Sequence record: PZ212788.1
Reading direction: 5' to 3' (one strand)
DNA length: 64,000 bases
Origin: a phage
Shown here: positions 4,801 to 57,664 of the stretch, piece after piece
How the letters are laid out: each line of letters opens with the position of its first letter
How positions within the stretch are numbered: the stretch's first letter is position 1
Made by a program: the position numbers and the translations under genes
The notes under the pieces: generated by a model
Told to the model about the DNA's origin: nothing
Databases searched by the model: none
Seen by the model: the letters and a program-made list of their open reading frames with translations, nothing else

Positions 4801-5642
4801 CACTTGTAACAGATCGTCACTACCCTGCTCCGTACGCTGGTACACTGCTTGTTTACAAAAACACAGCTAACAGACCTCAAGGTTGTGTGCAGGAATATAT
4901 CACCTATTTTGGTGACAGATATACTCGTGCTGGTAACTACGTTGGCGATGTCTTTACTTGGGAAGAATGGAGACACGATGCTGGTAAGGGCATCCAGTTA
5001 AGACCTAATTACACTTTTGGTGAAACCAGTAATCAACTGGAAATTCATATCGGTGCTAATGGTCTTCCCTCCAACGCAGATGGCTTACCTAAGGATGATG
5101 CTGTACTCCATTATTGGGGTAACGGCAGCACAGGGGATCGTCCAAACGTGTTAGAGTTTAAGGTTCGTGACGAGTCTCAAGCAAATTGGGTATGGCATTG
5201 CGGTACCTTGCCGGATAAATCAAGATATCTTTCTGTAAACGGTGCTGTGAATTGCACATCTGTCAATCAGAGTTCTGACAGAGACCTGAAAGATAACATA
5301 GCTGTTATTCCTGATGCGTTAGAAGCTATCCGGAAGATGAAGGGTTATACTTACACTCTTAAAGAGAACGGTATGCCTTATGCAGGTGTTATAGCACAAG
5401 AGGTGCTTGAAGCGCTGCCGGAAGCAGTTAGCTCTTTCGTGCAAAGAAAGGAAATCCCAAACCCTGATCAGGATGGAACTCCTTTAGTAACAGAGGAAAG
5501 ATTCTACAGCGTGGATTACGCAGCCGTAACAGGCTTGCTTGTCCAGGTTTGCAGGGAACAGGACGATAAAATAACCGCCCTTGAGGAGCAGGTTAAAAAA
5601 TTGACAGAGGTTGTTACTGGGTTGCAAGAGAAACTTAAGTAA
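1830..5642 (+). CDS. Long tail fiber protein (1270 aa) with C-terminal intramolecular chaperone / S74-type self-cleaving domain
   Basis: RBS AGGAGA upstream of ATG; C-terminal SDRDLKDNIAVIPDALEAIRKMKGYTYTL plus coiled coil is the hallmark of autoproteolytic fiber chaperone domains; internal GGTGARDAAG and GGTSARTVGDA fiber repeats. Confidence 0.85.
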   Translation: MADIKVVRIESLPATTAVTEDDYLVVQQPDLTRRVKIGDVVHVDGTVSHVISFKEGGKLNGPMDFAYFEEEDLYLRWKGEFPHTVPALSSPYSDGGITDAAWMVYTDPSLREELESTIGASMIMTAEGQSVQDVMDVTVQTANDAKALAQRVDFGTVHTVGDVIHLVNFVGPAVIEEGRTTNYPSVAAGERFLNGVVSRRDTTTVDGIFRGATTGAMYTIAVTNGVATTKRIALRDEFKRLEANNPTRTVIRAGDDLNTAGYLQLDATGRWGMWNQQTASWQPLAIEQGGTGARDAAGVRINIGAFYKQRAALEPNFNINNLTGNQDGVYYQPMTAYATEANGYPAGSGAGHLIVWQNNANGGTGCRQEYYPFSNVDVWYLRTYQANTNQWTAWQPMVRPRNDDTFRSHIGLGKNNSPAFGHLYLAQYSGDVKSASGILHGDKYNTDGVLEHGYRIYSEVRNDNKAWLTIHLHKGAKGSETHRYLGFREDGVLDCPKYMQVGDLNGQMANWGLGEWIRSSGAERGFWGSKKAAKMVIWDGGMDEQGEGTLEWGVYNNRKAKWEPLPIACGGTSARTVGDAQAQFRIPLAAGARPYVNLPRTAAMQDGKYYPIIVRTDPNFAATIGTDLTIVTRSSSGGDPMNCATLQCHYRTGGWTDRGDSFQGVINFYQNEKAILGCVSPTRGKQEYVAFYVEARAFPVTVYAGATVIEVSTREADWQVGNVTGNQDGVKFCAPLESADLSLAIKGDDVTNTRPLVEFKGTSGFYTGGGTMWHYLGTPERYAVMSKMNMPKVELWADGIDYICPGSQTTRKALFSNAGFQAASEGTEDLINNTFTSKCGNGARLQGQAEFRSTPEAGQVIVRDVVGTAHKFYNFNKDGTFFPPGGYVCQTGADWNNQFGNTNPSKIMAGNVNGPEGSMVVGGLSVAFSGNYAFQMAGRLDQLYTRSIEGGNHRAWNKVIQHRGQGLGTEDLNAYDGSREGFYHQGSNADALVTDRHYPAPYAGTLLVYKNTANRPQGCVQEYITYFGDRYTRAGNYVGDVFTWEEWRHDAGKGIQLRPNYTFGETSNQLEIHIGANGLPSNADGLPKDDAVLHYWGNGSTGDRPNVLEFKVRDESQANWVWHCGTLPDKSRYLSVNGAVNCTSVNQSSDRDLKDNIAVIPDALEAIRKMKGYTYTLKENGMPYAGVIAQEVLEALPEAVSSFVQRKEIPNPDQDGTPLVTEERFYSVDYAAVTGLLVQVCREQDDKITALEEQVKKLTEVVTGLQEKLK

Positions 5643-6885: not shown

Positions 6886-7310
6886 TGAGCACACACCCTC
6901 GTTTAGTGGATTGGCAAGAAAGATTGTGGAAAGTGTTTGACGAAGAGGCCACCATACCTTTTGAATGGGGATTCCACGATTGTTGCACCTTTGCAGCTAA
7001 GTGTGTTGATGCCCAATACGGAACAGATTTTCTTTCTAACTTTGAAGGAACGTATAAAACAGAGTTGGAAAGCAAGAGATGGTGCATGCTTCATTTCAAA
7101 ACCACACATCTGCCCACTATTTTTGATTTCTTTATGACTCGACTGGACACTCCTAAACAGGTTCAGCGTGGTGATATTGTTATTTTCGAAGGCCTGAACG
7201 GGCTCACCGCTGGTGTGTTCTGGAACAACCAGATTTGGGCGAAAGGGGATAAAGGGGTCTTTATGTTCGACATGAAAGATTCTATCGTTGTTGATGTCTG
7301 GAGGTATTAA
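6885..7310 (+). CDS. Tail tip assembly protein, NlpC/P60-like (lambda gpK-like)
   Basis: ATG 6885 with RBS GGGAGG; motifs FHDCCTF and GDIVIFEG...AGVF resemble Cys peptidase tail proteins; lies immediately before J-like gene. Confidence 0.4.
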   Translation: MSTHPRLVDWQERLWKVFDEEATIPFEWGFHDCCTFAAKCVDAQYGTDFLSNFEGTYKTELESKRWCMLHFKTTHLPTIFDFFMTRLDTPKQVQRGDIVIFEGLNGLTAGVFWNNQIWAKGDKGVFMFDMKDSIVVDVWRY

Positions 7311-10300
7311 TGCCAATTGCAATGATTGATAACATCGTTGCTTCTGCAAGATCTTCAAGTTATGACTGGAACGCATCCAAGGCAGCTCTGGCTGACAGCC
7401 TGAACACTGTTACCACCAGAACTCTGGATAAGATTTTTGAGGGCAACAAATCTTACAGAAGTCAGCAAGATAGACAAAAGCTTCTCAGATCTTCTGCTGC
7501 ACCTTGCTCTGTAGTGTATGGGAAGACACGCACATCTGGATTACTTGCGTTTTTGGAGCAGGACAGGGACAGGACCCTCCATTGTGCTATTGTTCTTGCC
7601 AATCATCCCCTGGAAGGTATAGAAGATATACTCATCGACGGTAATCCTATTTCCTCGTATGGAGATTTGATATCGTGGGAGCTACATAACGACAGAAAAA
7701 CATCTGATCCTTTCATGGGTACACACTGCCCGTCGTGGTCACCAGACATGATAGGTAGAGGGATCAGTTGGCTACGTGCCAGCTTCAGGTTTGACCCTAA
7801 CAAGTTCCCTTTTGGGTTGCCAAACGTTACACTCGTCAAGGTTGGTAAAAAATGCTATGATCCTCGTATCAGTAAAGAGGTGTATACCAATAACGCGGCC
7901 TTGGTGATTCTAGACTATTTAAGAACGTACCTTAAATGTCCTGACGAAACCATCAACTGGGAGTCCTTCAAGGAGGCTGCTAACATATGCGATGAGGCGG
8001 TAAGAAACGCGGACGGAACTAGTGAGCGCCGTTACACCATTAATGGTGAGTTCGATATGGATGAGGCCCCAGCAAGTATTATGGCAGAAATGCTGAAAGC
8101 TTGTGGTGCAGATCTCAGCTATGTAGCTGGTAAGTATGGACTGCTGGTAGGTGCATATTATGGTCCGGCAACAATGACACTGAGTGAGGACTGTGTCTGT
8201 GGTGAGGTTAAGATCTATCCGGAAGCCTCGTTTGACAAAAGATCCAACACAATAACTGGCAGATTCACCAGTCCGACTAAAGGGTATTCTGAAACAGATT
8301 TTCCATCAGTATTTGTCCCAGAGTGGATAGAGAAGGATGGAGAAAGAAAGATAATCGATATAGACTACCGCTTTGTTACCAGTCCTTACCAAGCTCAGCG
8401 TGTTTCTGCAATCTTCTTAAGACGTGCTAGAGCTGGCAGGATTATTGAAGTCACCTGCAATATGCGAGGTTTTAAATTTAAGCCTGGTAGTTACGTTACA
8501 ATGGACCTTCCAAGTATTGGTATAGTGGGCCAAGAAATGAGGGTTCTTGAGTGGGAGTTCACTAAAAAGGGTGGTGTTAAGGTAAAACTTCGCCAAGATG
8601 CTAAAGAGTGGAATGATGCCACAGGGCAACTTCCTGATTCCGGCGATGTAGATATTCCGATATCCCCGTCCGGTGTAGCTCAACCGCAAAACTTCAGATA
8701 CTCCGTTCTCCAAGCTGGGGAAGTAACTCACGGTGTTTTGGCTTGGGACAACGTTGGAACTTACGCTCAAAATATTGTGCAGGTAAGAAAGAACGGAGAG
8801 ATTGTTTGGACAGCACAGACAGTTGAGCAGTTTGTCCGAGTAGAAGGCTTGACCAAAGGGTCATACACAGCAACCGTGGTTGCAACATCTTATAAAGGTG
8901 GTGTATCTCCAGAAGCCTACTGCGAGTTCAACATTCAAGCACCTGAAGCTCCTGTTTCTGTAGAAGTTAAGCAGGGATACTTTGCTATCACCTTGATTCC
9001 GCATAGTAGGGATTTAGCAAGTGTTAGCACCCAGTATGACTTTTGGACATCCGGTATGACAAGGTTGCCAGACACCAGTGATGCAACCGTTACTTCAAAA
9101 GCCACCCGTATGGGTGTTGGTTCAACTTGGACATCTGAAGGTCTGCAGAACGATAAGATTTATTATTGGTATATTAGAACCACAAACGCTTTTGGTAGTT
9201 CTCAGTTTGTAGAATGCGCTGCACGCTGCTACACCTCTATTGAGGATTTGATGCCTCAGATAGATGCTGAATTCAAAAAGACAGAAACTTATAAAGAGTT
9301 GATGAGTACTTTGGATTCCTCTATTGAAGAGGTTGAAAATCGTGTCACAGAACTTAACAGGTACATGGATGGTAGGGTAGATGAAGCGTTCCAGCAACTT
9401 GGGGACAGAATAGGTGCGGTAGTTACAGAAACAACTCAGAAGTTTGAAGATGTCAATGGTAACATTACAGCGCTGGATAGGAAACTTGTTGCTGCACAGA
9501 ACAAATTCACCAACGATCTGAACACTGAAAGTGGCAGACTGGCATCTCTGATCGAGACAACCAATAAAGCAACTACTGATCTTCTGAACAAAAAGACAGA
9601 GGCTTTAGATGAGAAATTGGTTGCCGCCAAAGGTGAGCTGGTAGAGCAGATAGAGGGAGTTGAGAGCGGGTATTTAGCCGGAGATAAAACTCTGGATGGT
9701 AAGATCAATACTCAGAGAACAGAACTTGACGCAAGCATCTTGAGCACTAACCAGGCAACTGTGGATCTTTTGAACAGGACATCTGAAACTCTGGATCAAA
9801 AGATCAGTCAGACAAACGCGACGGTATCTAAAAACTATACCACCCTGGATGGCAAGATAACCACCGCAAAAACTGACCTCAACACCTTGATTGCCAATAC
9901 CAACAAGGCCACCACTGACTTGTTGAATCAGAAAACATCTGCACTGTCAGAGCAGATAACTTCTGCACGTGGGGAGATTTCTACCAACAAGCAGGCGATT
10001 GATGCTTTGGATGGAAAACTGACTTCCACAAAAACAGCGCTGGATGCTACAATTTCCGATACCAACAAAGCTACTGTGGACCTTATCAACGGCACAGCGT
10101 CAGCTATTCGTCAAGAACTTGCTGTTGCTAAGCAGGAGATCATTGATGATGTTGGGGATGTGTCCGAAATCAGGGCTGCAGTAGCTACAACATCTAAGGC
10201 TGTAACCGACTTAGAGGGTAAAGTAAATGCTCAATGGGGCACAAAAATACAGGTAGACTCCGCAGGGAATAAATATGTTGCAGGTATCCAGTTGGGGATG

Positions 10301-11149
10301 GAAGGGTCTGGAGGCCAAGTTCAATCCTACTTCATGGTTAGTGCAAACAATTTTGCGGTATACAACCCTGGAAATGGAACAGCAACCCTTGCTTTCGCAA
10401 TCAAGAACAACCAAGCGTTCTTGAAAGATGCTTTTATAGAGAACGGGACGATTTCATCTGCCAAGATCGCACAAGAAATTTCGTCAAACAACTACGATGG
10501 CAACGGGTACCATAAATACGGTTGGTATATTAACAAGAACGGGCACGCCCAATTTATGGATGTATGGGTGAAAGGCAACATCAACGCCAGTTCTGGTAAC
10601 TTCACAGGGGCAGTTAACGCCACTAGTGGTACCTTCCGTGGGGATGTTTATGCCAATAATGGTAGCTTTAGGGGCACCATAGATGCAACTGGAGGTACCT
10701 TCCGTGGACGTGTAGAAGCTTCCGTTATCCGTGCTAACCAGTTCGAAGGTGCAATCGTTGCACATAGGACCTACGGTGACTGTTCTCCAGTGTACAACTC
10801 GCAGCAAAGGGTTTGCCGTTGGAGGTGGAGATATGTGGACAACGTGCAAGGCCAAGGTAAGAACGTAACATTCTTCTTTAAACTGAATGGTACTCTTGCC
10901 AGCTCACAACTGAATGCATGGATAGCTGGTCATCAGATCCTTGCTGGCAAGAAGTATTTTAACGACAACAACGGCATGTGTGCGGTAGGGATAACAGGTC
11001 TGGGTGAACAAACTATAGACATTGTTATCGAGATTTACACACCGTGGTCAACGTCTAGCGTGACAGGTGTCACAATCTCCTGTCCTACTGTGATCGTTAG
11101 TCGTTCTAACTCAAGCTTCCAGGGACCTTGGAACGAGTCTCACGACTAA
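7310..11149 (+). CDS. Central tail fiber / host specificity protein J-like (1279 aa)
   Basis: Segments FDFWTSGM...YYWYIRTTNAFGSSQFVECAARC and KYVAGIQLGMEG...FMVSANNFAVYNPGNGT match recalled lambda gpJ regions; FN3-like central part. Confidence 0.8.
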   Translation: MPIAMIDNIVASARSSSYDWNASKAALADSLNTVTTRTLDKIFEGNKSYRSQQDRQKLLRSSAAPCSVVYGKTRTSGLLAFLEQDRDRTLHCAIVLANHPLEGIEDILIDGNPISSYGDLISWELHNDRKTSDPFMGTHCPSWSPDMIGRGISWLRASFRFDPNKFPFGLPNVTLVKVGKKCYDPRISKEVYTNNAALVILDYLRTYLKCPDETINWESFKEAANICDEAVRNADGTSERRYTINGEFDMDEAPASIMAEMLKACGADLSYVAGKYGLLVGAYYGPATMTLSEDCVCGEVKIYPEASFDKRSNTITGRFTSPTKGYSETDFPSVFVPEWIEKDGERKIIDIDYRFVTSPYQAQRVSAIFLRRARAGRIIEVTCNMRGFKFKPGSYVTMDLPSIGIVGQEMRVLEWEFTKKGGVKVKLRQDAKEWNDATGQLPDSGDVDIPISPSGVAQPQNFRYSVLQAGEVTHGVLAWDNVGTYAQNIVQVRKNGEIVWTAQTVEQFVRVEGLTKGSYTATVVATSYKGGVSPEAYCEFNIQAPEAPVSVEVKQGYFAITLIPHSRDLASVSTQYDFWTSGMTRLPDTSDATVTSKATRMGVGSTWTSEGLQNDKIYYWYIRTTNAFGSSQFVECAARCYTSIEDLMPQIDAEFKKTETYKELMSTLDSSIEEVENRVTELNRYMDGRVDEAFQQLGDRIGAVVTETTQKFEDVNGNITALDRKLVAAQNKFTNDLNTESGRLASLIETTNKATTDLLNKKTEALDEKLVAAKGELVEQIEGVESGYLAGDKTLDGKINTQRTELDASILSTNQATVDLLNRTSETLDQKISQTNATVSKNYTTLDGKITTAKTDLNTLIANTNKATTDLLNQKTSALSEQITSARGEISTNKQAIDALDGKLTSTKTALDATISDTNKATVDLINGTASAIRQELAVAKQEIIDDVGDVSEIRAAVATTSKAVTDLEGKVNAQWGTKIQVDSAGNKYVAGIQLGMEGSGGQVQSYFMVSANNFAVYNPGNGTATLAFAIKNNQAFLKDAFIENGTISSAKIAQEISSNNYDGNGYHKYGWYINKNGHAQFMDVWVKGNINASSGNFTGAVNATSGTFRGDVYANNGSFRGTIDATGGTFRGRVEASVIRANQFEGAIVAHRTYGDCSPVYNSQQRVCRWRWRYVDNVQGQGKNVTFFFKLNGTLASSQLNAWIAGHQILAGKKYFNDNNGMCAVGITGLGEQTIDIVIEIYTPWSTSSVTGVTISCPTVIVSRSNSSFQGPWNESHD

Positions 11150-37350: not shown

Positions 37351-37851
37351 GTGAAAATTAAGATCTTTGCTATTATTTTGAGCGCACTTTTATCGCTGCC
37401 TGTTGTTGCAGCACCAAAACAAAAAGTATATCATACTTGCAAGCCCTCAGATACTAAGGAAAACATTCTGGCATGCAATATCTACAGGGAGGCTAGAGGG
37501 GATGGCACGATGGGTATGCTGGCATCAGGGTTTGCCACACTAAACAGGAAATCTCACCCCAAATACCCAGACACTATAAGAAACATTGTCTACCAACCTA
37601 ACCAGTTTTCGTGGACAAACCACGGCAAAACTTTTAAGGTGACAGAAAAAGATTCATGGGATCACGCTAAAAGTCTTGCAAAGATGCTTCTAAAGGTCTA
37701 TAATAACAACCATGTTGCATACATGGCTATGGACATAACAGGTGGAGCAACACACTACCATACAACCAAAGTACGACCGAAATGGGCAAAAAAGATGCAG
37801 AGGACAGCTCAATTCGGGAGTCATATCTACTACAAGGAGCGCAATAAATGA
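37351..37851 (+). CDS. SleB-like cell wall hydrolase with N-terminal signal peptide (candidate endolysin)
   Basis: GTG start with RBS GGAG; signal peptide MKIKIFAIILSALLSLPVVAAP; Hydrolase_2 motifs NIYREARGDG, ATLNR, YQPNQFS. Confidence 0.65.
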   Translation: MKIKIFAIILSALLSLPVVAAPKQKVYHTCKPSDTKENILACNIYREARGDGTMGMLASGFATLNRKSHPKYPDTIRNIVYQPNQFSWTNHGKTFKVTEKDSWDHAKSLAKMLLKVYNNNHVAYMAMDITGGATHYHTTKVRPKWAKKMQRTAQFGSHIYYKERNK

Positions 37852-39830
37852 TTGTAAACAGTAATGAAACTAAAGCAGTACTAACCGGAAATATGGAGGT
37901 CACCAGGGGCTCAATTTCTCTGAACAAAGAGACTTTTGGGCTAATCATTAAAGGGATTTACGAAGATAAGGTGCTGGCAAGCTGCCGTGAACCAATCTTC
38001 AATGCTGTGGACTCCCATGTTGAGTCTGGACGGGGTGATGTACCTATCATCATTCACTCTCCTACAGACCTTGAACCATACTTCTTTGTGCAGGACGTTG
38101 GATTGGGCATGTCAGAAGAGATGGTCCGCAACACTTTCATGAATCTCGGGGAGTCAACCAAGCGCAACAGCAACGCTCTGGTAGGTAATAAAGGTGTTGG
38201 TTCAAAGGCTCCGTTCAGTATGGTGGACACTTTCGATGTTATCAGTGTGCACAATGGTGTTGAAAGCACATATCTATTGTTCTTGGATCAGGGTATCCCA
38301 AACGTTACCAAGATCCGCGAGCGAAAGACTGAAGAGCACAACGGGGTAAAAGTTCAGTTCCATGTTAAGAAAGAGCATGTTCTGAAATATCGCACTGCTA
38401 TTGCGTCATGCCTACGCTATGCAAAGTTTCCGTTTACCGTTACCGACCCTATGACCAGTAAGATGCTGGAAGGTGACAAGGTTGAGGCGCAGTATCGCTA
38501 CGAGAAAGATGGTTGGAAAATGACTATCCTGAAAGGTTATACCAGCTCTGATGAGAGCCGTGTGGTGATGGGACACCAACCTTACCGCTCTAAGTTTCTG
38601 GAAACATTGACAGACTACCCTGCAATCTGTGTAGAGATCCCTATCGGGGATTGCAATATTAACCCTGGGCGCGAATGGACCATAGAGGGGCACGACGATG
38701 GTGGATTCCAGGATCGCCTGGAGGCCTTTGTCAAAGAAGGTATACGTCTTCGTGGGGCAGAAGTTGTTGCGGAATTGGAGACAGCAAAAACATCCTCAGA
38801 AGCACGTGAGATGATGAAGAACAGTGGAGTGTTCGGACACATCTTCGGCAAAAACTTTATGTGGAACCGTTGGGAAGAAACAGGGCTTGGCGACTTAGGC
38901 GATTGTGAAATTTTCGCTGGCGGCTTAAATAAAGGCCGCATAGGCTATGCTCGTTACGGAAAGTCGGAGTTCTTACGAGGTGTATACCTTGTATTTAACG
39001 ACGGAGACGGCAAATATAACCGAAATAAGTGTAACTACTTAAGCGAGATCACCGGACGCAACGTTTTCTATTGCCGTAACACGGATCTGATGGAAGAGTT
39101 TAAAGAAGCGGCACACCACCCGTTCTTTGCAGATACGGTCAAATTGTTATCAGAGCTCCCTCGCCGTCCTGTAAAGAAAGGTGAAACAAAAACTCACTAT
39201 GAGCCAGGGTATTGGGTTAAAAAACTTGAGAAAGATGGTTACTTCCGTCGTGAGCGTATTACTAAGGCAGAGTTCAAGAAGATTAAGCACTGCATTCCTT
39301 ATGAGGGTGATATCCAACGTGGAAGTTGTTGGCTGGGACAGCTAAGTAACATCTACCAGCAAAATTATGACCGTGTGCGTGCGGCACTCAAGATTCCTGA
39401 AGGGGAAGATCTGTACCTGGTATCAGAATCTCGTCTGCTTTGGACTGATCCTGATTGCCAGTATGTTACAGAGAAAAATGTGGAACATTTGTTGAAAGAG
39501 GACGCCTGGAAATTCTTACTGACTCGCGCAGCAAATGAAACTTCATATGACAGCCTGTATAGACAATTAGGGAAAATTATCCCCATGCAAGATTTTGGAA
39601 ATTATCGGCCACATTTCCACAAGTGGGAAGGTAACACCGCGTGGAAGCACAGTGAGCTAAATCATCGTGCCAAAATCTTAATCGCCAACCGAGTCAAGTG
39701 CGGGAAGGCCTATATTGCAAGATTGGAAAAGAAATATCCACTTTTGAAGCATGTGGGCTTGAAATATTGGGACACTCCTGCTATGATTGAATACCGTGAA
39801 CTGATCGACGCAAAGAATAACACCAAATAA
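37848..39830 (+). CDS. rIIA: rIIA-like protein with N-terminal GHKL ATPase fold (660 aa)
   Basis: GHKL boxes EPIFNAVDSH, QDVGLGMSEE, GNKGVGSKAPFS; N-terminal region aligns with recalled T4 rIIA (ETK..GN, DFG.GMS, SKSPFS.TDTF). Confidence 0.75.
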   Translation: MIVNSNETKAVLTGNMEVTRGSISLNKETFGLIIKGIYEDKVLASCREPIFNAVDSHVESGRGDVPIIIHSPTDLEPYFFVQDVGLGMSEEMVRNTFMNLGESTKRNSNALVGNKGVGSKAPFSMVDTFDVISVHNGVESTYLLFLDQGIPNVTKIRERKTEEHNGVKVQFHVKKEHVLKYRTAIASCLRYAKFPFTVTDPMTSKMLEGDKVEAQYRYEKDGWKMTILKGYTSSDESRVVMGHQPYRSKFLETLTDYPAICVEIPIGDCNINPGREWTIEGHDDGGFQDRLEAFVKEGIRLRGAEVVAELETAKTSSEAREMMKNSGVFGHIFGKNFMWNRWEETGLGDLGDCEIFAGGLNKGRIGYARYGKSEFLRGVYLVFNDGDGKYNRNKCNYLSEITGRNVFYCRNTDLMEEFKEAAHHPFFADTVKLLSELPRRPVKKGETKTHYEPGYWVKKLEKDGYFRRERITKAEFKKIKHCIPYEGDIQRGSCWLGQLSNIYQQNYDRVRAALKIPEGEDLYLVSESRLLWTDPDCQYVTEKNVEHLLKEDAWKFLLTRAANETSYDSLYRQLGKIIPMQDFGNYRPHFHKWEGNTAWKHSELNHRAKILIANRVKCGKAYIARLEKKYPLLKHVGLKYWDTPAMIEYRELIDAKNNTK

Positions 39831-39840
39831 GGAGACAGCT

Positions 39841-40422
39841 ATGATTTTCATCTACGAACATTTCAAAACTCGTAAAGAAGCACGCGACCGCCGTGCAGAA
39901 CTTGAGAAGAAGGGTTTCACATGTGCTATTGAGAAAGGTACTACAACATGGACACTGGCAGTAGGTGCCCCAGAGCTGTTTGATCCTGACCGAGACAGTG
40001 TCTGCTATACCCGTGAGGATTTTGAAACCCGCGAAGAGGCCCGTTTATTCCGCTACGGACTGGAAGACAACGGTAAGTACGCCATGATCTTAGATTCAGG
40101 TGAAGGTTCCGTTAAACGTTGGGGCGTGGTATACCCACTGTGTGTTGTTCACGGTGTGGGGGTCACTGGGGTAGCAATCAAGTCAGAAGAACCTTTAGTA
40201 GAAGTCAAAGATCCGGTGCTGGAAGTGGTGAGCAGTGTGTCTCAGCAACAGTCTCGAAGCATCGAGCCTTTGGTAGTTATTTGCGGGGAACTCCTCCAGA
40301 TCACCTGCAACGAAGGCATTTTTGAAATTCGCCGCAGCGAAAGTGAGGAAGTTTACCAGAAAGTCTTCGACCATATTTCTGTTCAGGAATATGATGAGGC
40401 AATTGGTGAAATCCTTGTCTAG
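39841..40422 (+). CDS. rIIB: rIIB-like protein, N-terminal portion ending at in-frame TAG (193 aa)
   Basis: RBS AAGGAGA; same reading frame as 40468-41046; C-terminal YQKVFDHISVQEYDEAIGEI resembles the T4 rIIB mid-region. Confidence 0.5.
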   Translation: MIFIYEHFKTRKEARDRRAELEKKGFTCAIEKGTTTWTLAVGAPELFDPDRDSVCYTREDFETREEARLFRYGLEDNGKYAMILDSGEGSVKRWGVVYPLCVVHGVGVTGVAIKSEEPLVEVKDPVLEVVSSVSQQQSRSIEPLVVICGELLQITCNEGIFEIRRSESEEVYQKVFDHISVQEYDEAIGEILV

Positions 40423-40467
40423 CTGGAACGCAAGAATGAGTTCACCACACTTGCAGACAACCTGATC

Positions 40468-41046
40468 ATGAAAGATGGTAAGCTCTACTACTACGGTGTA
40501 GAGATGCGATCCACCATTGCAAAGAAAATTGAGAAAGATTATGCAGACGGAACGCTGGATGACCGCTATGTGAAATTCCTCGTTCGCCTGCTACGCAATC
40601 CTTCTGCAAAATCTGTAAACATGCTCTACGATTTTATGCAGGCCAACGATATCCAGATTGCAGAAGATGGTCGAATCATTTGCTACAAAGGGGTTCAGTT
40701 TAACGGCAGCAAGTGGGTAGATTGGCACAGTGGTAAAGTTCCACAATACCAGGGTGCTTTTGTATCCATGCCTCGTAACTTTGTAGAGGATGATCCGGAA
40801 GCTGCGTGCTCCTATGGCTTACACTGCGCCAGCAAAGAGTATGCAAAGAGCTACGGCACTGTAATGACTGTCATGGTTGACCCTGCAGATGTGGTTAGTG
40901 TGCCATACCAACACAATAGCGCCAAGTGCCGTGCATGCCGCTATGAGATTGTGGTAGCTCCGGAAGCACGCAAAGATGGAGACCCTATTGAATATGTAGT
41001 TGATCGTGACGGTAACACTATCGACATTCTTTACGAGGAGGCGTAA
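40468..41046 (+). CDS. rIIB: rIIB-like protein, C-terminal portion (192 aa from first ATG after the TAG)
   Basis: FLVRLLRNPSAKSVNMLYDFMQANDIQIAEDG, CSYGLHCASKEYAKSYG and DPADVVSVPYQHNSAKCRACRYEIV match the recalled T4 rIIB C-terminal domain. Confidence 0.7.
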   Translation: MKDGKLYYYGVEMRSTIAKKIEKDYADGTLDDRYVKFLVRLLRNPSAKSVNMLYDFMQANDIQIAEDGRIICYKGVQFNGSKWVDWHSGKVPQYQGAFVSMPRNFVEDDPEAACSYGLHCASKEYAKSYGTVMTVMVDPADVVSVPYQHNSAKCRACRYEIVVAPEARKDGDPIEYVVDRDGNTIDILYEEA

Positions 41047-42416
41047 TGGAAAAAGGGCAGTATGATGTAGGCACAGATGCTGCCCTCGTTGCAATCATGA
41101 GCGGTGAGAATGTCTTCGTTTCAGGACCTGCAGGTTGTGGGAAGACGTATCTCATCAACATGATCCAGTCGATGTATGGAGACTCTTGCATAACGGTTGC
41201 CCCGACAGGGGTAGCCGCTTTAAACGTTAATGGAGCAACAGCACACCGAACCTTCGATCTTGCAGCAGGTGTGAGCATGGAGTCAGACTGGACCGCAATA
41301 AGGGCAAAAACAGCAAAGCCTTTGAAAAGCAAGGCATTTACCATCCTAATTATCGATGAAATCTCTATGATCCGTGCTGATAAGTTTATAGAGATGGATA
41401 GGAAACTCCGCTTCCTTCGAAAAAATGACAAACCTTTCGGAGGCATACAGGTCATATTGTTTGGCGATTTTTACCAGGCACCTCCTGTTGTCTCTTCTAT
41501 GGAGAAGGAAGCCTACTTCAACTTCTACCATACGGACCTGTGTTGCTATACCGAATCTTGGAAAGAGCTTGACCTCCACAACATAGCCCTAATAGATCAG
41601 TTCCGACAGGAGTCTATTCGATTTGCTACAATGCTCAACTGTGTTCGTGAGGGTCGTCGCATAAAAGAGGTTGTAGCAGAACTTAATGCTCGCTGTTACA
41701 AAGGAGGTGTACCAACAGACGCTCTCACAATTTGCGCCACCAACAAACAAGCAGAGGAAGTGAACAGAAGGTTCTATGATGCCATCAACGCCCCAGAGAA
41801 GGTATACACTGGTGAAATGAAGGGTAAGTTTCCCTCCACCCTGCCAGTTGAGCAGGAGATGAAGTTGAAAATTGGCATGAAAGTTATGATAACCGCCAAC
41901 GATGTTGACCCGACGCACAAAGTACCTTATTATGTTAACGGAACACGTGCTACAATTGTTAAATTTAAGAACAAGGCGGTGGTGGTAGAGCTTGAAGATG
42001 GAACACAGGTTGACATAGAGCAGAGGTTGTGGGAGAATAACGAGTATAAGCCATCCCAGAGATACAACATTGCAGAAAGGAAGATGGAGAAGTTTATAGA
42101 GAGGGTAGTGATTGGGTCATACAAGCAACTTCCTCTGAAATCTGGGTACGCTGTAACATCTCATAAAAGTCAAGGACTTACACTAGATTGTTACAACCTA
42201 GACCTTGGAAAGAACGGAGCTTTCTCTCCTGGGATGACGTATGTCGCTTTGAGTAGAGTTAAGACAATACAAGGAATAAACTTGTTGCGTCCACTAAGAG
42301 AGGTTGACATTATTGTTGACCCGCGAGTCGTAGAGTTTTACAATACAACATTCCCTGACTTAGACAAAATTGTCAGGAAAGATTTTGAAACCAGAGCAGA
42401 AGAGGGGGACGTATGA
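41046..42416 (+). CDS. Dda/Pif1-like superfamily 1 DNA helicase
   Basis: Walker A VSGPAGCGKTY, Walker B ILIIDEISM, C-terminal TSHKSQGLT motif. Confidence 0.8.
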   Translation: MEKGQYDVGTDAALVAIMSGENVFVSGPAGCGKTYLINMIQSMYGDSCITVAPTGVAALNVNGATAHRTFDLAAGVSMESDWTAIRAKTAKPLKSKAFTILIIDEISMIRADKFIEMDRKLRFLRKNDKPFGGIQVILFGDFYQAPPVVSSMEKEAYFNFYHTDLCCYTESWKELDLHNIALIDQFRQESIRFATMLNCVREGRRIKEVVAELNARCYKGGVPTDALTICATNKQAEEVNRRFYDAINAPEKVYTGEMKGKFPSTLPVEQEMKLKIGMKVMITANDVDPTHKVPYYVNGTRATIVKFKNKAVVVELEDGTQVDIEQRLWENNEYKPSQRYNIAERKMEKFIERVVIGSYKQLPLKSGYAVTSHKSQGLTLDCYNLDLGKNGAFSPGMTYVALSRVKTIQGINLLRPLREVDIIVDPRVVEFYNTTFPDLDKIVRKDFETRAEEGDV

Positions 42417-46949: not shown

Positions 46950-47684
46950 ATGAACGAGTTCAGAGATCACTGTGTAGCCAATCACTTGTGGTCAGAAATA
47001 TTGGAGTATGACGGTCAAAATCTTTTTTGGAAGATAGACATTCTGGCAGGTAGCGGTGTAGGATATGTTAAAACTTCAGCAGGCTCCAGAGCCGACAAGG
47101 GGCAAGATGCTGATGGCAGGCCTGTGGTTAGCCTAGGAAAGCATTGCACTAAAGGTGCCCACGTCATAATTTGGGAAATGTTTAACGGTCCTGTACCGGA
47201 AGGGTATGAGGTTGACCACATCAAGGAGATAAGGGAAACAGGTGGTGTGGCTGATAACAGTATTCAAAATTTGCAACTACTCGAGCCCACAGATAACAAA
47301 AAGAAAAGTTGCAAGATACCTCGTAGCAACAACAAATCTGGCAGGGTCGGGGTGCACTATTCTGAAGAAAGAGAGGCATGGGTAGCTCAAGGCACAGACT
47401 CTGTAGGGGAAAGGGTCTGGCTAGGCCAGTACAGAACTTTCGAAGAGGCAGAGTGGGCAAGAAAGTTCTTCGAAGATAATGGTTTTTCGCACAAGAGTGG
47501 AAGAGCCGTGCAGTATAATAACACCAGCGGTTGCTCAGGGGTGAATTGGGATAAAACCCATGAGAGATGGGTAGCCAGAATTTATGTAGATGGTAAAAGG
47601 AAATGCCTTGGGTATTTCAAGAATAGGGACGATGCAATAGCTGCAAGAAAGAATGCTGAGAAGAAACAGGAGGAGACAGTATGA
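46950..47684 (+). CDS. HNH homing endonuclease with AP2-type DNA-binding domains
   Basis: HNH core EGYEVDHIKE...NSIQNLQLL; two AP2-like repeats SGRVGVHYSEEREAWVAQ and SGCSGVNWDKTHERWVARIY; inserted between primase-helicase and polymerase. Confidence 0.8.
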   Translation: MNEFRDHCVANHLWSEILEYDGQNLFWKIDILAGSGVGYVKTSAGSRADKGQDADGRPVVSLGKHCTKGAHVIIWEMFNGPVPEGYEVDHIKEIRETGGVADNSIQNLQLLEPTDNKKKSCKIPRSNNKSGRVGVHYSEEREAWVAQGTDSVGERVWLGQYRTFEEAEWARKFFEDNGFSHKSGRAVQYNNTSGCSGVNWDKTHERWVARIYVDGKRKCLGYFKNRDDAIAARKNAEKKQEETV

Positions 47685-50458
47685 GTAATTGGTGCTTCGA
47701 TCTGGAGGCCTCCGGGCTTTTGGAAGACCCAGATCTTTATTATCACTGCGGCCTGTTTAAAGAGCTGAATAAGAACCGTTTTATGCTGTTCCTTCCTCTA
47801 AATGACCGCACACACTACTCCGAGGAGGATATAGAAAAGGCTAAGAACTTCATTCTGGCAAAGAAAACTCTTTATAAAGATTTTGAAGTTCGCATAGCAG
47901 ATTTTTCAGAGTTGGAAGGTTGGCTTACAGGAAATTCTGACTGGTCACCAACAGCTTTGAACTGCCATAACTGCTACAGTTATGACTTTATGCTGATGGA
48001 AAGATTATCTGGTATTCATTTTGATATGTTCCGTGATCCTAAATGTATGGGGACTATCAACGATCACCAGGTTAACCTGTTTGATACGTTGGCGATGAGC
48101 CGAATCTTGTGGCCTGATCGCCCTTTACCAAAAGGTTGTCCGGACTCTGTATTCAACCCGGTTACTAAGAAAATGCAACCTGTTGGTCCTCACGGCCTTA
48201 TGGCATGGGGCTACGCCCTTGGTAACCAGAAAGTTCAAATTGATGACTGGCGCGATCTTCCGTTGTGGAAGTATGTGGATCGTGTATTCGAGGACGTTAT
48301 CATCCAGGAGCTGCTCTGGAAAGAGCTGGTAGCGGAATCAAAAGGTGTATTCTACGGCAAATCTGACATGCAGAACTTTATGTACGATCCAGCCAAAGAG
48401 AAGCCGAAAGGGTTCAAGAAAATCACCTGGAAGAACGCATTACGCCGAGGCATGCTGCAGCACTTCCTGATGGAGCTGCAGGCCCGTCAGGGTGTGTATT
48501 TCGACATAGATGGGGCTATTGCTTTACGTGACCGTTGCGATGCGTGGATGAAAGAGATCGCTGATCGTGTTGAACCTCAACTTCCTTTAAAAGAGTTGTC
48601 AATGTCTCAGCGGCCCAAGTTCCCTGAAAAGCCGTTTAACCAAGATGGGACAATCTCCAATAATGGTTGGAAATGGTTAAAAGATAAGCTTGGCTATCCT
48701 GTAGACATGAGCGCTTTAGAATTCAAAGCCCCGCCTAAGCGAGCATTTACCTCCACAGGAGATGTCAGCAAGATGGGGATAAAATGGTGCGAAGAGATGG
48801 GCTGCAAAGACCCCGACAAGATGGCTGATTTCTTGAGAGGTTATATTAAGGGCACCTCCACACCACAACCTTTACCTAAAGAGCTGATGGATCAGGCAAT
48901 AAGTGATCTGCAGCAGAAGCGAATGCCTGACTGCAAGATACCTATGAAAATCAGCAATCAGGACGACATTAAGCGATACCTGATCAGTGCTGGTTGGCTC
49001 CCAACAATGTGGAGAACTAAGGATGTAACTAAAGACAGCAAGAAGAAAGCTCTACCTGATGCAGATGTTGATGCACGAGTGTATGCATATATGGACGAGC
49101 TTTTAGAGTCAGAGTATTGTGACCTAATTATCAACTTCTGGAACAAAACTGATGCTAAGTTCCAGACAACCGTGCACAAGTTCCGAAGCTTTCCTAACTC
49201 CGAAAGGATTAAAAAGGAAGTATTCGGGAAAATACGTAGAAAAGCTAGGGCACTTATTACTTCTCCGCAACTGAAAGATACGTTTGGACACCTATGCCCG
49301 AATCTTGAAAAATTGAACGGAGAGATGGCTAAAGATATCGTCTTGTGGTTATCATTGCGAAACCGCAGATCGGTCCTTGATCCAATTAAGGAGGATAAGG
49401 TTGATACTGGTCTTCTTAATCACCCACGTTTGAAGATTGACCATAAGCTTCCTGCTAAAAGCTCTGGATTAACAAACACTTCCAGACAGAAACACAGTAT
49501 TTGTGCAAACATGCCTAAACCATCTCCTAAAGTGGTTATGGGTAAAGAGATGCGTAGTCTGTGGGGTGTTCCTCCGGGATACTTTGAGATCGGTATTGAC
49601 GGGTCCAACTTAGAGCAGCTTATCGGGGCTTGGGGTGCCTTTGAGTTCGACAACGGCTTGTATTATGATGTTGTAAGTAACGGAGACGCACACCAAAACA
49701 ATGCTGAGGCATATACAAAAGTGGCAGGCAGAGAGGTGTCCCGTAACGACGGTAAACCTATCACGTATGGGGTTATGTACGGGGCACAAAAAGATAAAGT
49801 TGCAGATATGCTGGACATCTCCCCAGAGTTGGGACAAAGGGTAATCGATGCACTCTGGGATGCCAACCCAGGTCTTAAGGGGCGCAAAGAGGATCTGGAG
49901 AAATTCTGGGAAGCAACAGGTAAGAAGTTTATCTACTCTTTTGATGGTCATGCTATCTGGACCCGATCTAAACACTCTTTACTTAATGCATACCAACAAA
50001 ATGGCGGTGCATCGTTGTGTGACTTAGTTGGAATACTCATGCACCACCAGATGGTGAAGCGTGGGTGGTACGATGAAGGTGTTCGTCGTATTATCTATTA
50101 CCATGACGAATATCAGCTTCAAGTCCCTGACACACCGAAGTATAAGACTGTGTACACCTTCGACACAATCGAAGAACTGGAAGCATTTAAGGCAGAGCAG
50201 GAGGCCAAACTTCATGTGTTCGACGGTCATAAGTACAAAAAGGCACGCAAGGATGAGGACGGAAACGAAGTGGTTGACAGAGACGGAAACACGGTGTACG
50301 ATCCTATCCTGAATGATGACGGAAAGCTTGAACTTATCTGGAGCCCTGTGGGTGAAATGGTGGTGCATTGCTTCTGGCAAGCTTCTAAAATGATGGGCGT
50401 CCCGTTCCAGATCACAGGTGAATACTTGTGTGGTCGTAATTGGGGCGATTGTCACTAA
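47681..50458 (+). CDS. Family A DNA polymerase, T7 gp5-like with 3'-5' exonuclease domain (925 aa)
   Basis: Exo I CFDLEASGL; GPHGLMAWGYALG resembling T7 gp5; motif B ITYGVMYGAQ; motif C YYHDEYQLQV; C-terminal NWGDCH. Confidence 0.9.
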   Translation: MSNWCFDLEASGLLEDPDLYYHCGLFKELNKNRFMLFLPLNDRTHYSEEDIEKAKNFILAKKTLYKDFEVRIADFSELEGWLTGNSDWSPTALNCHNCYSYDFMLMERLSGIHFDMFRDPKCMGTINDHQVNLFDTLAMSRILWPDRPLPKGCPDSVFNPVTKKMQPVGPHGLMAWGYALGNQKVQIDDWRDLPLWKYVDRVFEDVIIQELLWKELVAESKGVFYGKSDMQNFMYDPAKEKPKGFKKITWKNALRRGMLQHFLMELQARQGVYFDIDGAIALRDRCDAWMKEIADRVEPQLPLKELSMSQRPKFPEKPFNQDGTISNNGWKWLKDKLGYPVDMSALEFKAPPKRAFTSTGDVSKMGIKWCEEMGCKDPDKMADFLRGYIKGTSTPQPLPKELMDQAISDLQQKRMPDCKIPMKISNQDDIKRYLISAGWLPTMWRTKDVTKDSKKKALPDADVDARVYAYMDELLESEYCDLIINFWNKTDAKFQTTVHKFRSFPNSERIKKEVFGKIRRKARALITSPQLKDTFGHLCPNLEKLNGEMAKDIVLWLSLRNRRSVLDPIKEDKVDTGLLNHPRLKIDHKLPAKSSGLTNTSRQKHSICANMPKPSPKVVMGKEMRSLWGVPPGYFEIGIDGSNLEQLIGAWGAFEFDNGLYYDVVSNGDAHQNNAEAYTKVAGREVSRNDGKPITYGVMYGAQKDKVADMLDISPELGQRVIDALWDANPGLKGRKEDLEKFWEATGKKFIYSFDGHAIWTRSKHSLLNAYQQNGGASLCDLVGILMHHQMVKRGWYDEGVRRIIYYHDEYQLQVPDTPKYKTVYTFDTIEELEAFKAEQEAKLHVFDGHKYKKARKDEDGNEVVDRDGNTVYDPILNDDGKLELIWSPVGEMVVHCFWQASKMMGVPFQITGEYLCGRNWGDCH

Positions 50459-53640: not shown

Positions 53641-54908
53641 GCGTTATTCAACAATTCGCTAACCCGATGAATCCGCGTGAAACTGTTTTACTGGCTCACG
53701 GCATGATTAAACGCGTCAGCATCAAGCCTATCAAAGGTGCTGATCCTACAACAGGTATTAAAACCACTGTGTGGCAAGGTAAGAAAATTGAGTCCAGCCA
53801 CACCATCTCTTTACTGATTTCTGAACTGGATTCCTCTGATAACCTACTTCAAGGTGGTGAAGAAGTTTGGATCAGTATGGGCGATAAGCTGCTTAAACCG
53901 GGTCATCAAGACTCTGTCTCTGTTAAAATTGATGACAAGTGGGAAACCGTAACGCCAGGATGGATCGTAAATATCCCTTTGAAGGCAAACGAGCATAACG
54001 GTAAGACCTACTACAAAGGCTCACTGGCTAAGATGGTTAAGCTGGGTGCAGGAGAGGCTCCAGCAGCGACTCAGCAGCAAAAACAGCAACAAGGTGCACA
54101 ATCACAAGGCCAGAAGCAGAAACCTCAGCAGAATGCCAATCAGGACGTTTTACGCATCTATGGTGATGTGACTCAGATTGTTGGCAACGTGGTTACTGTT
54201 AATGACCACAAGATTGGCGAAGGTGCTATGGTTGTAACTGATGAGCAGCTTAAAGACCTGGTGGTAGGTGGTCGTGTTGCAGCCATTGTTGACAAAGACA
54301 CCGGAAACATTATCAGTGGTTTCAAAGCCTATCCTCCTAAGGCAGAGAACGGCACTCAAGGCTCTGGTGGCAAGCGTAAATCCTCTTACGACCCTATCGG
54401 TGTGGAGACGGGACATAGCATCAATGCGTTGCAGATCATCCTGGATCGCGGGTTTAAGGTAGACGACCCACTGGGCGTGGCTAAAACACTGCACGTAGTC
54501 ACCATTGAGCTTAAGAAAGAGTATGCTCAAGCCACCAACCGAACTGAAGATGAAGTAGGTGCCAGTGTCGGTAATGCGGTGTTGAACGCTTGTCGCCGTA
54601 TTGACAAGAAAACGAAAGTTGATGATTTTGCAGTGGCAATTACTGCAGAAGCAAAAGATGTCTTGACTAATCTAGCTGAGCCGTTGTACGATTGGATCAA
54701 GAACGGTGCTGAGTCCACTGACCATCAAGAACCTCAGGCTGCCAAACAGGAAGCAGCTCCACAGCAAAACACTGTAGACGCTCCTCCTGTAAATGATGGG
54801 GAAGATGACCCGATGGATCAGAATCCAGCACAGTATGACTTCTGTGATGACATACCTTTCGCTCCGGTGGGTTTGCAATATGGAAAAAGCAGAATCCACG
54901 CATTGTAA
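53637..54908 (+). CDS. Two-domain protein with Gln-rich linker and acidic SSB-tip-like motif; possible ssDNA-binding protein (423 aa)
   Basis: RBS GGAGA; linker [20 protein letters not shown]; near C-terminus [19 protein letters not shown] resembles the E. coli SSB tail DFDDDIPF; no enzymatic motif. Confidence 0.35.
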
Positions 54909-55503
54909 GAGGTGCATCAAGTGCGGAGAGGTGAAAAACCTCTCCGAGTTCTACAAACACCCAAAGATGTCTGACGGTCATCTTAATAAGTGCAAAGAGT
55001 GTTGCAAGAAGGCCAGCAGGGAGGCTGACAGGTTTTCCCACGACTCTTCAGAAAAAGGTGTAATACGCGTGCTGTACAAGGCTCAAAAGTGCAACAGCAA
55101 GCAAAGAGGCCACCCTCCTCCGACTTACACCAAAAAAGAGTTTAAGGAGTGGCTATACCTGAACGGTTACAAAGAGTTGTATGATCAGTGGGTAGCCAGC
55201 GGATACGACAAAAGGAAAAAGCCTTCTTGTGACAGGATAGATGATTTCAAAGGGTACTCTTTTGATAATATCCGTTTAACGACTTGGGGAGAAAATAAAG
55301 ACAAGCAGACGGAGGATATTCTGTTGCATAGAAGCACCAGCGGTAGACGGTGTAAAAATGTAAGAAGGCTGGACATGAATGGAAACGTTCTTAAAGAATG
55401 GGTATCCCACAATTCTTGTAGAAGAGAAACCGGAATATGTGTTGATTACTACATTCATGAAAAAATTCCAGCCCCCGATGGATACCTCTATGAATACTTT
55501 TAG
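54880..55503 (+). CDS. Zinc-finger / HNH-like endonuclease-like protein (207 aa)
   Basis: ATG 54880 overlaps the upstream gene by 29 nt; [10 protein letters not shown]...CKECCKK zinc finger; [25 protein letters not shown] resembles the HNH DHID...N motif with His replaced by Arg. Confidence 0.4.
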
Positions 55504-57272: not shown

Positions 57273-57443
57273 GTGGAGACTAAAATCTTAATTCTTGCTG
57301 TGGTAGATACAACCGAAGGAGCTATATTCGAATCTGCAGGGGGGTATTTCTACCTACCATACGGAAAAAGAACTTCCGAGCCAAGTAAAGATTCAATCCT
57401 CAAGGTGTTCCCGTGTGCTTTCTGGCTGGAGATTTTGGTATAA
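57273..57443 (+). CDS. Small protein (56 aa), below ORF-track cut-off
   Basis: GTG start with RBS GAGGAG 7 nt upstream; uninterrupted frame to TAA 57441-57443; fills promoter-to-gene gap. Confidence 0.25.
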   Translation: METKILILAVVDTTEGAIFESAGGYFYLPYGKRTSEPSKDSILKVFPCAFWLEILV

Positions 57444-57469
57444 GATTGCAGAGGATTTGGGAGAGAATT

Positions 57470-57664
57470 ATGAGAAACAAGAAAGAGCTTTACTCTGGTG
57501 AGTGGATCAACGATCAACAGGTGGGAGAGGTAACCTGCTTCCGATGTTTTACCAGGTACAATCTTAAAACTGCACCAAAAAGTGTTCCAAAGACTGATGG
57601 TTATTACATAAAAGAACCTCATTGCCCAAAATGTAAATGCCGATTATACTGGAGTAACCTGTAA
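57470..57664 (+). CDS. Small zinc-ribbon protein (64 aa)
   Basis: ATG 57470 with RBS GGGAGAGA; Cys pairs CFRC and CPKCKC. Confidence 0.45.
   Translation: MRNKKELYSGEWINDQQVGEVTCFRCFTRYNLKTAPKSVPKTDGYYIKEPHCPKCKCRLYWSNL

Follow-up and report, generated by a model that had tools for sequence, protein, structure and literature searches.

The rIIB gene of the phage in sequence record PZ212788.1 is interrupted by an amber codon, which is probably a private loss-of-function allele created by a recent G-to-A change at position 40421 that turned Trp194 of RIIB into a stop. Positions are those of the 64,000-nucleotide (nt) stretch of this record that was analysed as a whole, hereafter the window. What the window holds is a nonsense allele of rIIB, and it is private in the sense that it was seen in none of the sequences examined. 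An event of this kind is ordinary and already well known, and it is no new mechanism of gene expression.

Results

Two open reading frames (ORFs) in the window start 627 nt apart, a distance divisible by 3, and lie in one frame parted by TAG and 15 sense codons. This is the arrangement described in an earlier note on the same DNA, written from the sequence alone; the peptides quoted there are all found in the sequence and the coordinates given there are right. A full-length uninterrupted rIIB frame was not found in the window, with TAG standing at codon 194. Between the TAG and the ATG at 40468 (40423–40467) there is no in-frame ATG, GTG or TTG, and after this ATG the rIIB frame is open up to the TAA at 41044–41046. 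Read through the stop, the frame has 401 codons, which agrees with the protein of about 400 amino acids (aa) that the note had predicted.

The rIIB region is 96–98% identical to about 120 GenBank Vequintavirus phages (rV5-like Escherichia coli myoviruses), including rV5, APECc02, Murica and several BASEL phages. Judged by this similarity, the window phage is itself a Vequintavirus, i.e. an rV5-like E. coli myovirus. Specifically, in MaxTheCat, vB_EcoM_366V, inoa, APECc02, CarlMeissner and HdK5 one coding sequence (CDS) of 1206–1209 nt lies opposite 39841–41046; it is annotated as rIIB in five of the six and as 'hypothetical protein' in HdK5. Because the two ORFs are collinear with the one 401-aa CDS of the relatives, they are not chance neighbours. 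Across the stop, the window sequence has 98.8% aa identity to the RIIB of MaxTheCat. The earlier note had named relatives with two genes divided at the same boundary as evidence to the contrary; the annotated relatives inspected have one gene. Intact Vequintavirus rIIB genes (rV5, MaxTheCat bas57_0066, CarlMeissner bas48_0067, Bas54 bas54_0067) share 98–100% nt identity with the window in each half and are alike in length, start, stop and neighbours (cell-wall hydrolase, rIIA, rIIB, Dda-like helicase). The window differs from all of them in having TAG for TGG at codon 194. Two points of labelling were noticed among the database entries. Sixteen GenBank MG0656xx records go under the name 'Campylobacter phage' but share about 97% identity with E. 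coli Vequintaviruses; mislabelling or contamination is probable. The E. coli 'plasmid' CP057073.1 (137.6 kilobases, kb) is a Vequintavirus genome with an intact rIIB, probably mislabelled as well.

Over an alignment of about 100 nt with four relatives, the window shows a single difference, the G-to-A change at 40421 that converts Trp194 to amber. When a 71-mer centred on the TAG was used as query, 99 phage records were matched, none of them at 100% identity (0/99), whereas the same 71-mer with TGG matched 104 phage records, 70 of them at 100%. The TAG allele did not turn up when collections of viral and genome contigs were scanned for the exact pattern, and there was no match in E. coli genomes. 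Leaving the codon free gave four hits in viral or metagenome contigs. TGG stands in the three of these that were read directly; L010, the remaining hit, duplicates the 137,418-nt contig L007 and was left unread. The metagenome scan was run once, with the codon free, and returned TGG alone. Nine further public contigs (L018–L026), which encode exactly the RIIA protein of the window, all have TGG, and in the eight that cover the gene to its end RIIB is intact and 401 aa long. An exact-protein look-up with the 193-aa fragment gave no match. Of the four explanations offered in the earlier note, the natural amber allele is the one that this distribution supports, TGG being present in all relatives examined. 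Deamination of a 5-methylcytosine of the Dcm type was considered as the cause of the change and is without support: the minus-strand C sits in GCCAGAC and not in a CCWGG site.

The sequence around the stop bears on the age of the mutation. HdK5, nomo, naswa, CarlMeissner and EmilHeitz are identical to the window at 599 of 600 nt over the 5' 600 nt of rIIB. Over 39841–40533 the sole mismatch to CarlMeissner, HdK5 and the nine extra contigs is 40421, except that one contig (L021) also differs at 40495. From 40378 to 42403 the window is identical to MaxTheCat except at 40421, which means 0 differences over the 621 nt past the stop and none for about 2 kb. In the 5' half of rIIB the ratio of nonsynonymous to synonymous substitution rates (dN/dS) is 0.06, and the differences from relatives are almost all synonymous. 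These comparisons indicate that both halves of rIIB have been kept under purifying selection, with no sign of decay after the stop. Because neither half shows decay, the stop must be very young.

The surrounding sequence was checked by tblastn of 96 MaxTheCat CDSs against the window, which revealed no frameshift and one other early stop, a TAA in a small gene. The latter gene (57273–57473) is a 66-codon hypothetical gene orthologous to MaxTheCat bas57_0090, where GAA is replaced by TAA at 57441–57443, ten codons before the usual end. In the window it starts with GTG and not ATG, and it lies in a diverged region with about 91% aa identity. Its early TAA looks like natural C-terminal length variation.

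Regarding the identity of the gene, its assignment to rIIB in the earlier note is confirmed both by profile matches and by homology to T4 RIIB. The 192-aa C-terminal ORF (40468–41043) matched five RIIB PHROGs, the best being PHROG 609 'RIIB lysis inhibitor' (E=1e-55), and PF26926 (Phage_T4_rIIB) is precomputed on the identical 192-aa protein; our local Pfam copy gave no RIIB match on this ORF. The PHROG RIIB alignment begins at residue 11 after the stop, a few residues before Met209. In BLASTP, the intact orthologue has 37% identity to T4 RIIB over 204 aa (E=4e-39), starting from residue 172. The claim that similarity to T4 rIIB runs across the stop therefore holds in part: the BLASTP alignment does open 22 residues before the stop (YQKVFDH...), but only 5 of these 22 residues are identical and the stretch alone is without significance (E=5.7). 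In a four-way alignment the positions upstream of the stop that are invariant with T4 are P143, V145, I147, G149, A187 and I191. Trp194 is not conserved and is replaced by Phe, Ala or a gap in distant homologues.

The first approximately 140 residues of RIIB are lineage-specific and have no T4 counterpart. Within the N-terminal 100 or so residues (39841–40140) there are two SPOR-like repeats, the Pfam SPOR score being 20.2 bits against a cutoff of 21 bits, and the orthologue in CP057073.1 has been named 'SPOR domain-containing protein' by the Prokaryotic Genome Annotation Pipeline (PGAP). A HMMER scan of 1.84 billion protein representatives with the N-terminal region gave three matches only; the two full-length ones are proteins of about 400 aa in which the RIIB C-terminal domain is present on alignment. 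A search for homologous proteins with the N-terminal ORF returned three fragmentary clusters only and missed the full-length orthologues. For the N-terminal half there was no NCBIfam match, a sequence search of PDB gave noise only, and a single-sequence AlphaFold model with a mean predicted local distance difference test (pLDDT) score of 40.6 was too poor to use. RIIB is commonly referred to as a 'membrane integrity protector' in the cytoplasm or associated with the membrane, and one would not expect it to carry a domain of peptidoglycan-binding type.

The gene neighbourhood is summarized in Table 1. As the earlier note had it, rIIA lies directly upstream on the same strand, and rIIB starts 11 nt past the rIIA end. 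RIIA has 98.6% aa identity to that of MaxTheCat, and the exact protein is found on at least 24 public contigs. The helicase has 100% aa identity to MaxTheCat over residues 1–454. Because its start overlaps the rIIB stop (TAATG), the helicase could feel polarity from the premature stop in rIIB.

Table 1. Features of the rIIB locus in the window
Feature	Position	Strand	Evidence
rIIB orthologue of 401 codons with one amber inside; pseudogene or nonsense allele	39841..41046	+	Collinear with the single rIIB CDS in relatives; one in-frame stop by tblastn
rIIB 5' fragment, truncated product of 193 aa	39841..40422	+	Lineage-specific N-terminal region with SPOR-like repeats; residues 140–193 weakly alignable to T4 RIIB
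Amber codon TAG, mutated base A at 40421 (TGG, Trp194, in relatives)	40420..40422	+	Alignment
15 in-frame sense codons from the stop to the first ATG; ordinary rIIB coding sequence	40423..40467	+	Same as relatives
rIIB 3' fragment from internal Met209 to the end (192 aa); conserved RIIB C-terminal domain, no ribosome-binding site of its own	40468..41046	+	PHROG 609, E=1e-55
Shine-Dalgarno sequence AAGGAG of rIIB	39829..39834	+	Anti-Shine-Dalgarno duplex energy -9.3 kcal/mol
rIIA orthologue, 660 aa, intact	37848..39830	+	PHROG 612, E=1.7e-124; Pfam HATPase_c_3, E=1.8e-8
Dda/PIF1-like DNA helicase	41046..42416	+	Pfam PIF1, E=1.1e-32; PHROG 325
Crossover interval of the mosaic junction; holds the amber codon	40378..40533		Murica-type on the 5' side, APECc02-type on the 3' side

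The rIIB gene of the window is a mosaic, murica-type (HdK5/CarlMeissner) up to 40533 and APECc02-type (MaxTheCat) from 40378. Both parental types are identical to each other in the 156 nt from 40378 to 40533, and the crossover must therefore lie within this interval. The pairing of a murica-type 5' half with an APECc02-type 3' half is the second difference from the intact Vequintavirus genes, and neither this pairing nor the same junction was found in the records and contig collections searched. The amber codon lies inside the crossover interval. With about 1 private substitution per 2 kb nearby, some private change would fall within the interval with a probability of about 8%, so the location may be a coincidence. 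Repair of a heteroduplex does not explain the A, because both parental types carry G. A mixed sample that gave a chimeric consensus, or error-prone synthesis in recombination, may possibly stand behind the coincidence.

Two other disrupted copies of rIIB were encountered. In the Logan contig SRR14695910_5003 (L015:2571-3777), reached by way of the N-terminal protein search, an inserted C (+1; TCTCAG to TCTCCAG) follows rIIB codon 134 and yields overlapping ORFs of 161 and 258 aa; it is an independent disruption of rIIB in a related Vequintavirus. The ENA contig ERZ26722121 NODE_2714 (L014:1-900, 4.5x) has TAA for GAA at rIIB codon 183 and TGG at codon 194. As independent evidence this ochre codon was down-weighted, the contig having a broken helicase gene and a mismatch cluster and being probably a low-quality assembly. 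Note that both copies came from fragment-biased searches and do not establish recurrent disruption.

Elsewhere in the window, three regions stand out in comparison with MaxTheCat. Directly before the ORF of a 925-aa family-A DNA polymerase (47681–50458), and overlapping it, is an HNH endonuclease ORF (46950–47684) with an HNH_3 match (E=5e-12) and an AP2-like match that stays below threshold (30.7 bits, cutoff 33.3). The polymerase of MaxTheCat is annotated as a two-piece joined CDS. At about 46.75–47 kb the window is strongly diverged from MaxTheCat, and because of this divergence a mobile homing-endonuclease insertion at the 5' end of the polymerase gene is suggested. Where MaxTheCat has only a 63-nt spacer between bas57_0085 and bas57_0086, the window holds an extra ORF of 236 aa without a Pfam match (54793–55503), and the gene upstream of this ORF is 15 codons longer in the window (423 vs 408 aa). 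Among the large genes, the two for lateral tail fibres (1830–5639 and 7310–11146) have diverged most from MaxTheCat, with 87% and 84% aa identity as compared to 98–100% for most others, which is consistent with exchange of receptor-binding modules.

Discussion

If the amber codon acts as a stop, ribosomes from the strong rIIB ribosome-binding site would halt at codon 194 and release an N-terminal fragment of 193 residues. The conserved C-terminal RIIB domain would be made at most in traces, either by near-cognate readthrough or by reinitiation at Met209. It is likely that the allele is null or strongly hypomorphic and that the phage is RIIB-deficient. The phage would stay viable because rIIB is an accessory gene, presumably required only against particular host defences and dispensable in standard laboratory hosts. 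The allele may have originated neutrally during isolation or propagation, or it may have been selected, either for its rapid-lysis plaque type or because it let the phage escape a RIIB-sensing defence.

Amber mutants of T4 rIIB, the classical UAG nonsense mutants, are similar to the allele described here. They affect the same gene family at the same place directly after rIIA, and the lesion is of the same type, a single transition to TAG in a gene that is dispensable on permissive hosts. In contrast, the window phage is a Vequintavirus and not a T-even phage, and its RIIB of 401 aa has a SPOR-like N-terminal half that T4 RIIB (312 aa) lacks. Moreover, the T4 ambers are selected laboratory mutants, whereas the allele of the window sits in a deposited or assembled genome and is known from sequence alone. 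Of 59 sites in the rIIB of the Vequintavirus Bas54 (bas54_0067, 1206 nt), 56 took transposon insertions, and the gene has been classified as 'Non-essential' (preprint 10.1101/2025.11.20.689424, Extended Data Table 8). For the RIIB of Vequintaviruses, non-essentiality is the one functional result that was found. Bas54 rIIA and the downstream helicase are likewise non-essential in E. coli K-12, and T4 rIIA and rIIB are required only when RexAB is present (preprint 10.1101/2025.11.20.689424). T6 escapers of a Lysobacter CARD-gasdermin system had, in all six cases (6/6), frameshifts or a premature stop in rIIB and became RexAB-sensitive (PMC10312443). As in the window, the T6 null escapers have a premature stop or frameshift as a single mutation in an otherwise wild-type genome. 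The likeness is one of outcome only. From the non-essentiality in Bas54 and T4 and from the T6 escapers we therefore conclude that an rIIB null is tolerated and may even be advantageous.

Several points weigh against a private loss-of-function allele. The A at 40421 comes from the consensus sequence only, and a consensus error or a minority variant is possible. Readthrough, if there is any, would probably give an active product, since the linker that holds Trp194 is not conserved. The loss of function is something that we infer. The remainder of the genome, including the transfer RNA (tRNA) cluster, lies outside the window that was compared, and the amber coincides with a private recombination junction.

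The first of these points leads to the alternative that the stop is an artefact of sequencing, consensus calling or assembly. The true base would then be G, or a minority variant would have been promoted, possibly because two Vequintaviruses were mixed in the sample and assembled into a chimera, which would have given rise to the mosaic junction as well. The TAG allele is in no other sequence found, position 40421 falls within the 156-nt interval where the haplotype switches, as a chimeric consensus might give, and public low-coverage assemblies of rIIB do carry apparent defects, as in the ENA contig (4.5x) mentioned above. We nevertheless consider an artefact unlikely. The G-to-A change is a clean transition and does not lie in a homopolymer, and the other approximately 64 kb contain neither a frameshift nor a mid-gene stop as compared to the 96 reference CDSs. 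Differences from relatives are overwhelmingly at third positions, as real divergence gives. Finally, both candidate parental haplotypes have G, so chimerism alone cannot yield A.

Whether a real amber at this place is random is a separate matter. It could have been selected as an escape from a RIIB-sensing defence, much as T6 rIIB nulls escape CARD-gasdermin, or it could have been born in the recombination that made the junction; we consider such a non-random origin quite unlikely. If it is true, recurrent disruption between the N-terminal half and the C-terminal domain would mark rIIB as an often-toggled 'liability' gene in Vequintaviruses. The SPOR-like N-terminal fragment, if free, might then keep a function of its own.

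A real amber could also be suppressed, so that full-length RIIB is made. The suppressor could belong to the host (supE/glnV44 or supF, e.g. DH5alpha, C600 or LE392) or be a mutated phage tRNA, for example tRNA-Tyr with GTA changed to CTA. The supE44 allele is carried by common cloning strains, at least one related phage (PMBT16) has been grown on DH5alpha, and the tRNA-Tyr(GTA) of the relatives is one mutation away from an amber suppressor. With Trp194 non-conserved, Gln or Tyr should be tolerated at this position. Against this, ARAGORN found no tRNA gene in the 64-kb window, the tRNA cluster of the genome lying outside it. In the closest complete relative, MaxTheCat, the tRNAs are Arg-TCT, Tyr-GTA, Ser-TGA, Thr-TGT, Met/Ile-CAT and Pro-TGG together with one odd tRNA-like gene, and none has a CUA anticodon. 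The suppression by a phage tRNA that the earlier note had put forward is thus without support in the window or in this relative. Besides, TAG ends 12 of the 80 crude ORFs in the window (a count that takes in the truncated rIIB ORF and a few unlikely minus-strand ORFs), and a strong suppressor would extend these dozen or so ORFs. Among the 96 mapped CDSs no other gene has an in-frame TAG. We regard suppression as very unlikely.

The annotation of the MaxTheCat tRNA cluster (MZ501094 133828-134640; L012:43829-44641) itself deserves a remark. ARAGORN places a tRNA-Ser(TGA) at L012 44109–44199 that is unannotated in the record; the gene annotated there as tRNA-Lys comes out as a tRNA-like gene of 99 nt whose anticodon is called, abnormally, with four bases; and the gene annotated as tRNA-Ile(ATA) has a CAT anticodon.

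Another possibility is a functional gene in two pieces, where reinitiation at the ATG at 40468 gives an active, separate C-terminal RIIB protein of 192 aa. This ATG is 46 nt past the stop, and the ORF that it opens has essentially all of the region matched by the RIIB profiles. Ribosomes might possibly be relayed by an out-of-frame ATG at 40436, whose 9-codon ORF ends with the TGA at 40463–40465, 2 nt before the ATG at 40468. Reinitiation after nonsense codons and tolerance of N-terminal changes are classical results for T4 rIIB. In the window, the ATG at 40468 has no Shine-Dalgarno sequence: the 20 nt before it give an anti-Shine-Dalgarno duplex of +0.4 kcal/mol, weaker than at all 80 gene starts in the window (median -7.5). 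Reinitiation at Met209 is conceivable but inefficient. Furthermore, the fragment misses part of the shared core (approximately T4 residues 65–130), and invariant positions lie upstream of the stop. The split organisation occurs in no relative, and an independent downstream gene was rejected on this ground together with the missing Shine-Dalgarno sequence. Taken together, a working two-piece gene is highly improbable.

Finally, programmed readthrough of the stop, or reassignment of TAG, as a way of tuning RIIB dosage is next to untenable: the in-frame arrangement alone favours it, whereas every relative examined has TGG (70 records identical to the TGG 71-mer and 12 further contigs), and this sense codon in the relatives excludes a conserved readthrough signal. 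TAG serves as a normal terminator in the window, with no second in-frame TAG and no suppressor tRNA found, which contradicts the proposal of programmed readthrough in the earlier note.

Conclusions

The finding bears chiefly on annotation and on the quality control of strains. In the annotation of this genome rIIB should be entered as a pseudogene or nonsense allele and not as two hypothetical genes. Users of the phage should expect that it is probably RIIB-deficient, and its behaviour could change on lysogens or on strains with Rex-like or RIIB-sensing defences. Such a deficiency is relevant to host-range or therapy work. That Vequintaviruses can do without rIIB had been shown by experiment, and the allele adds a case from nature.

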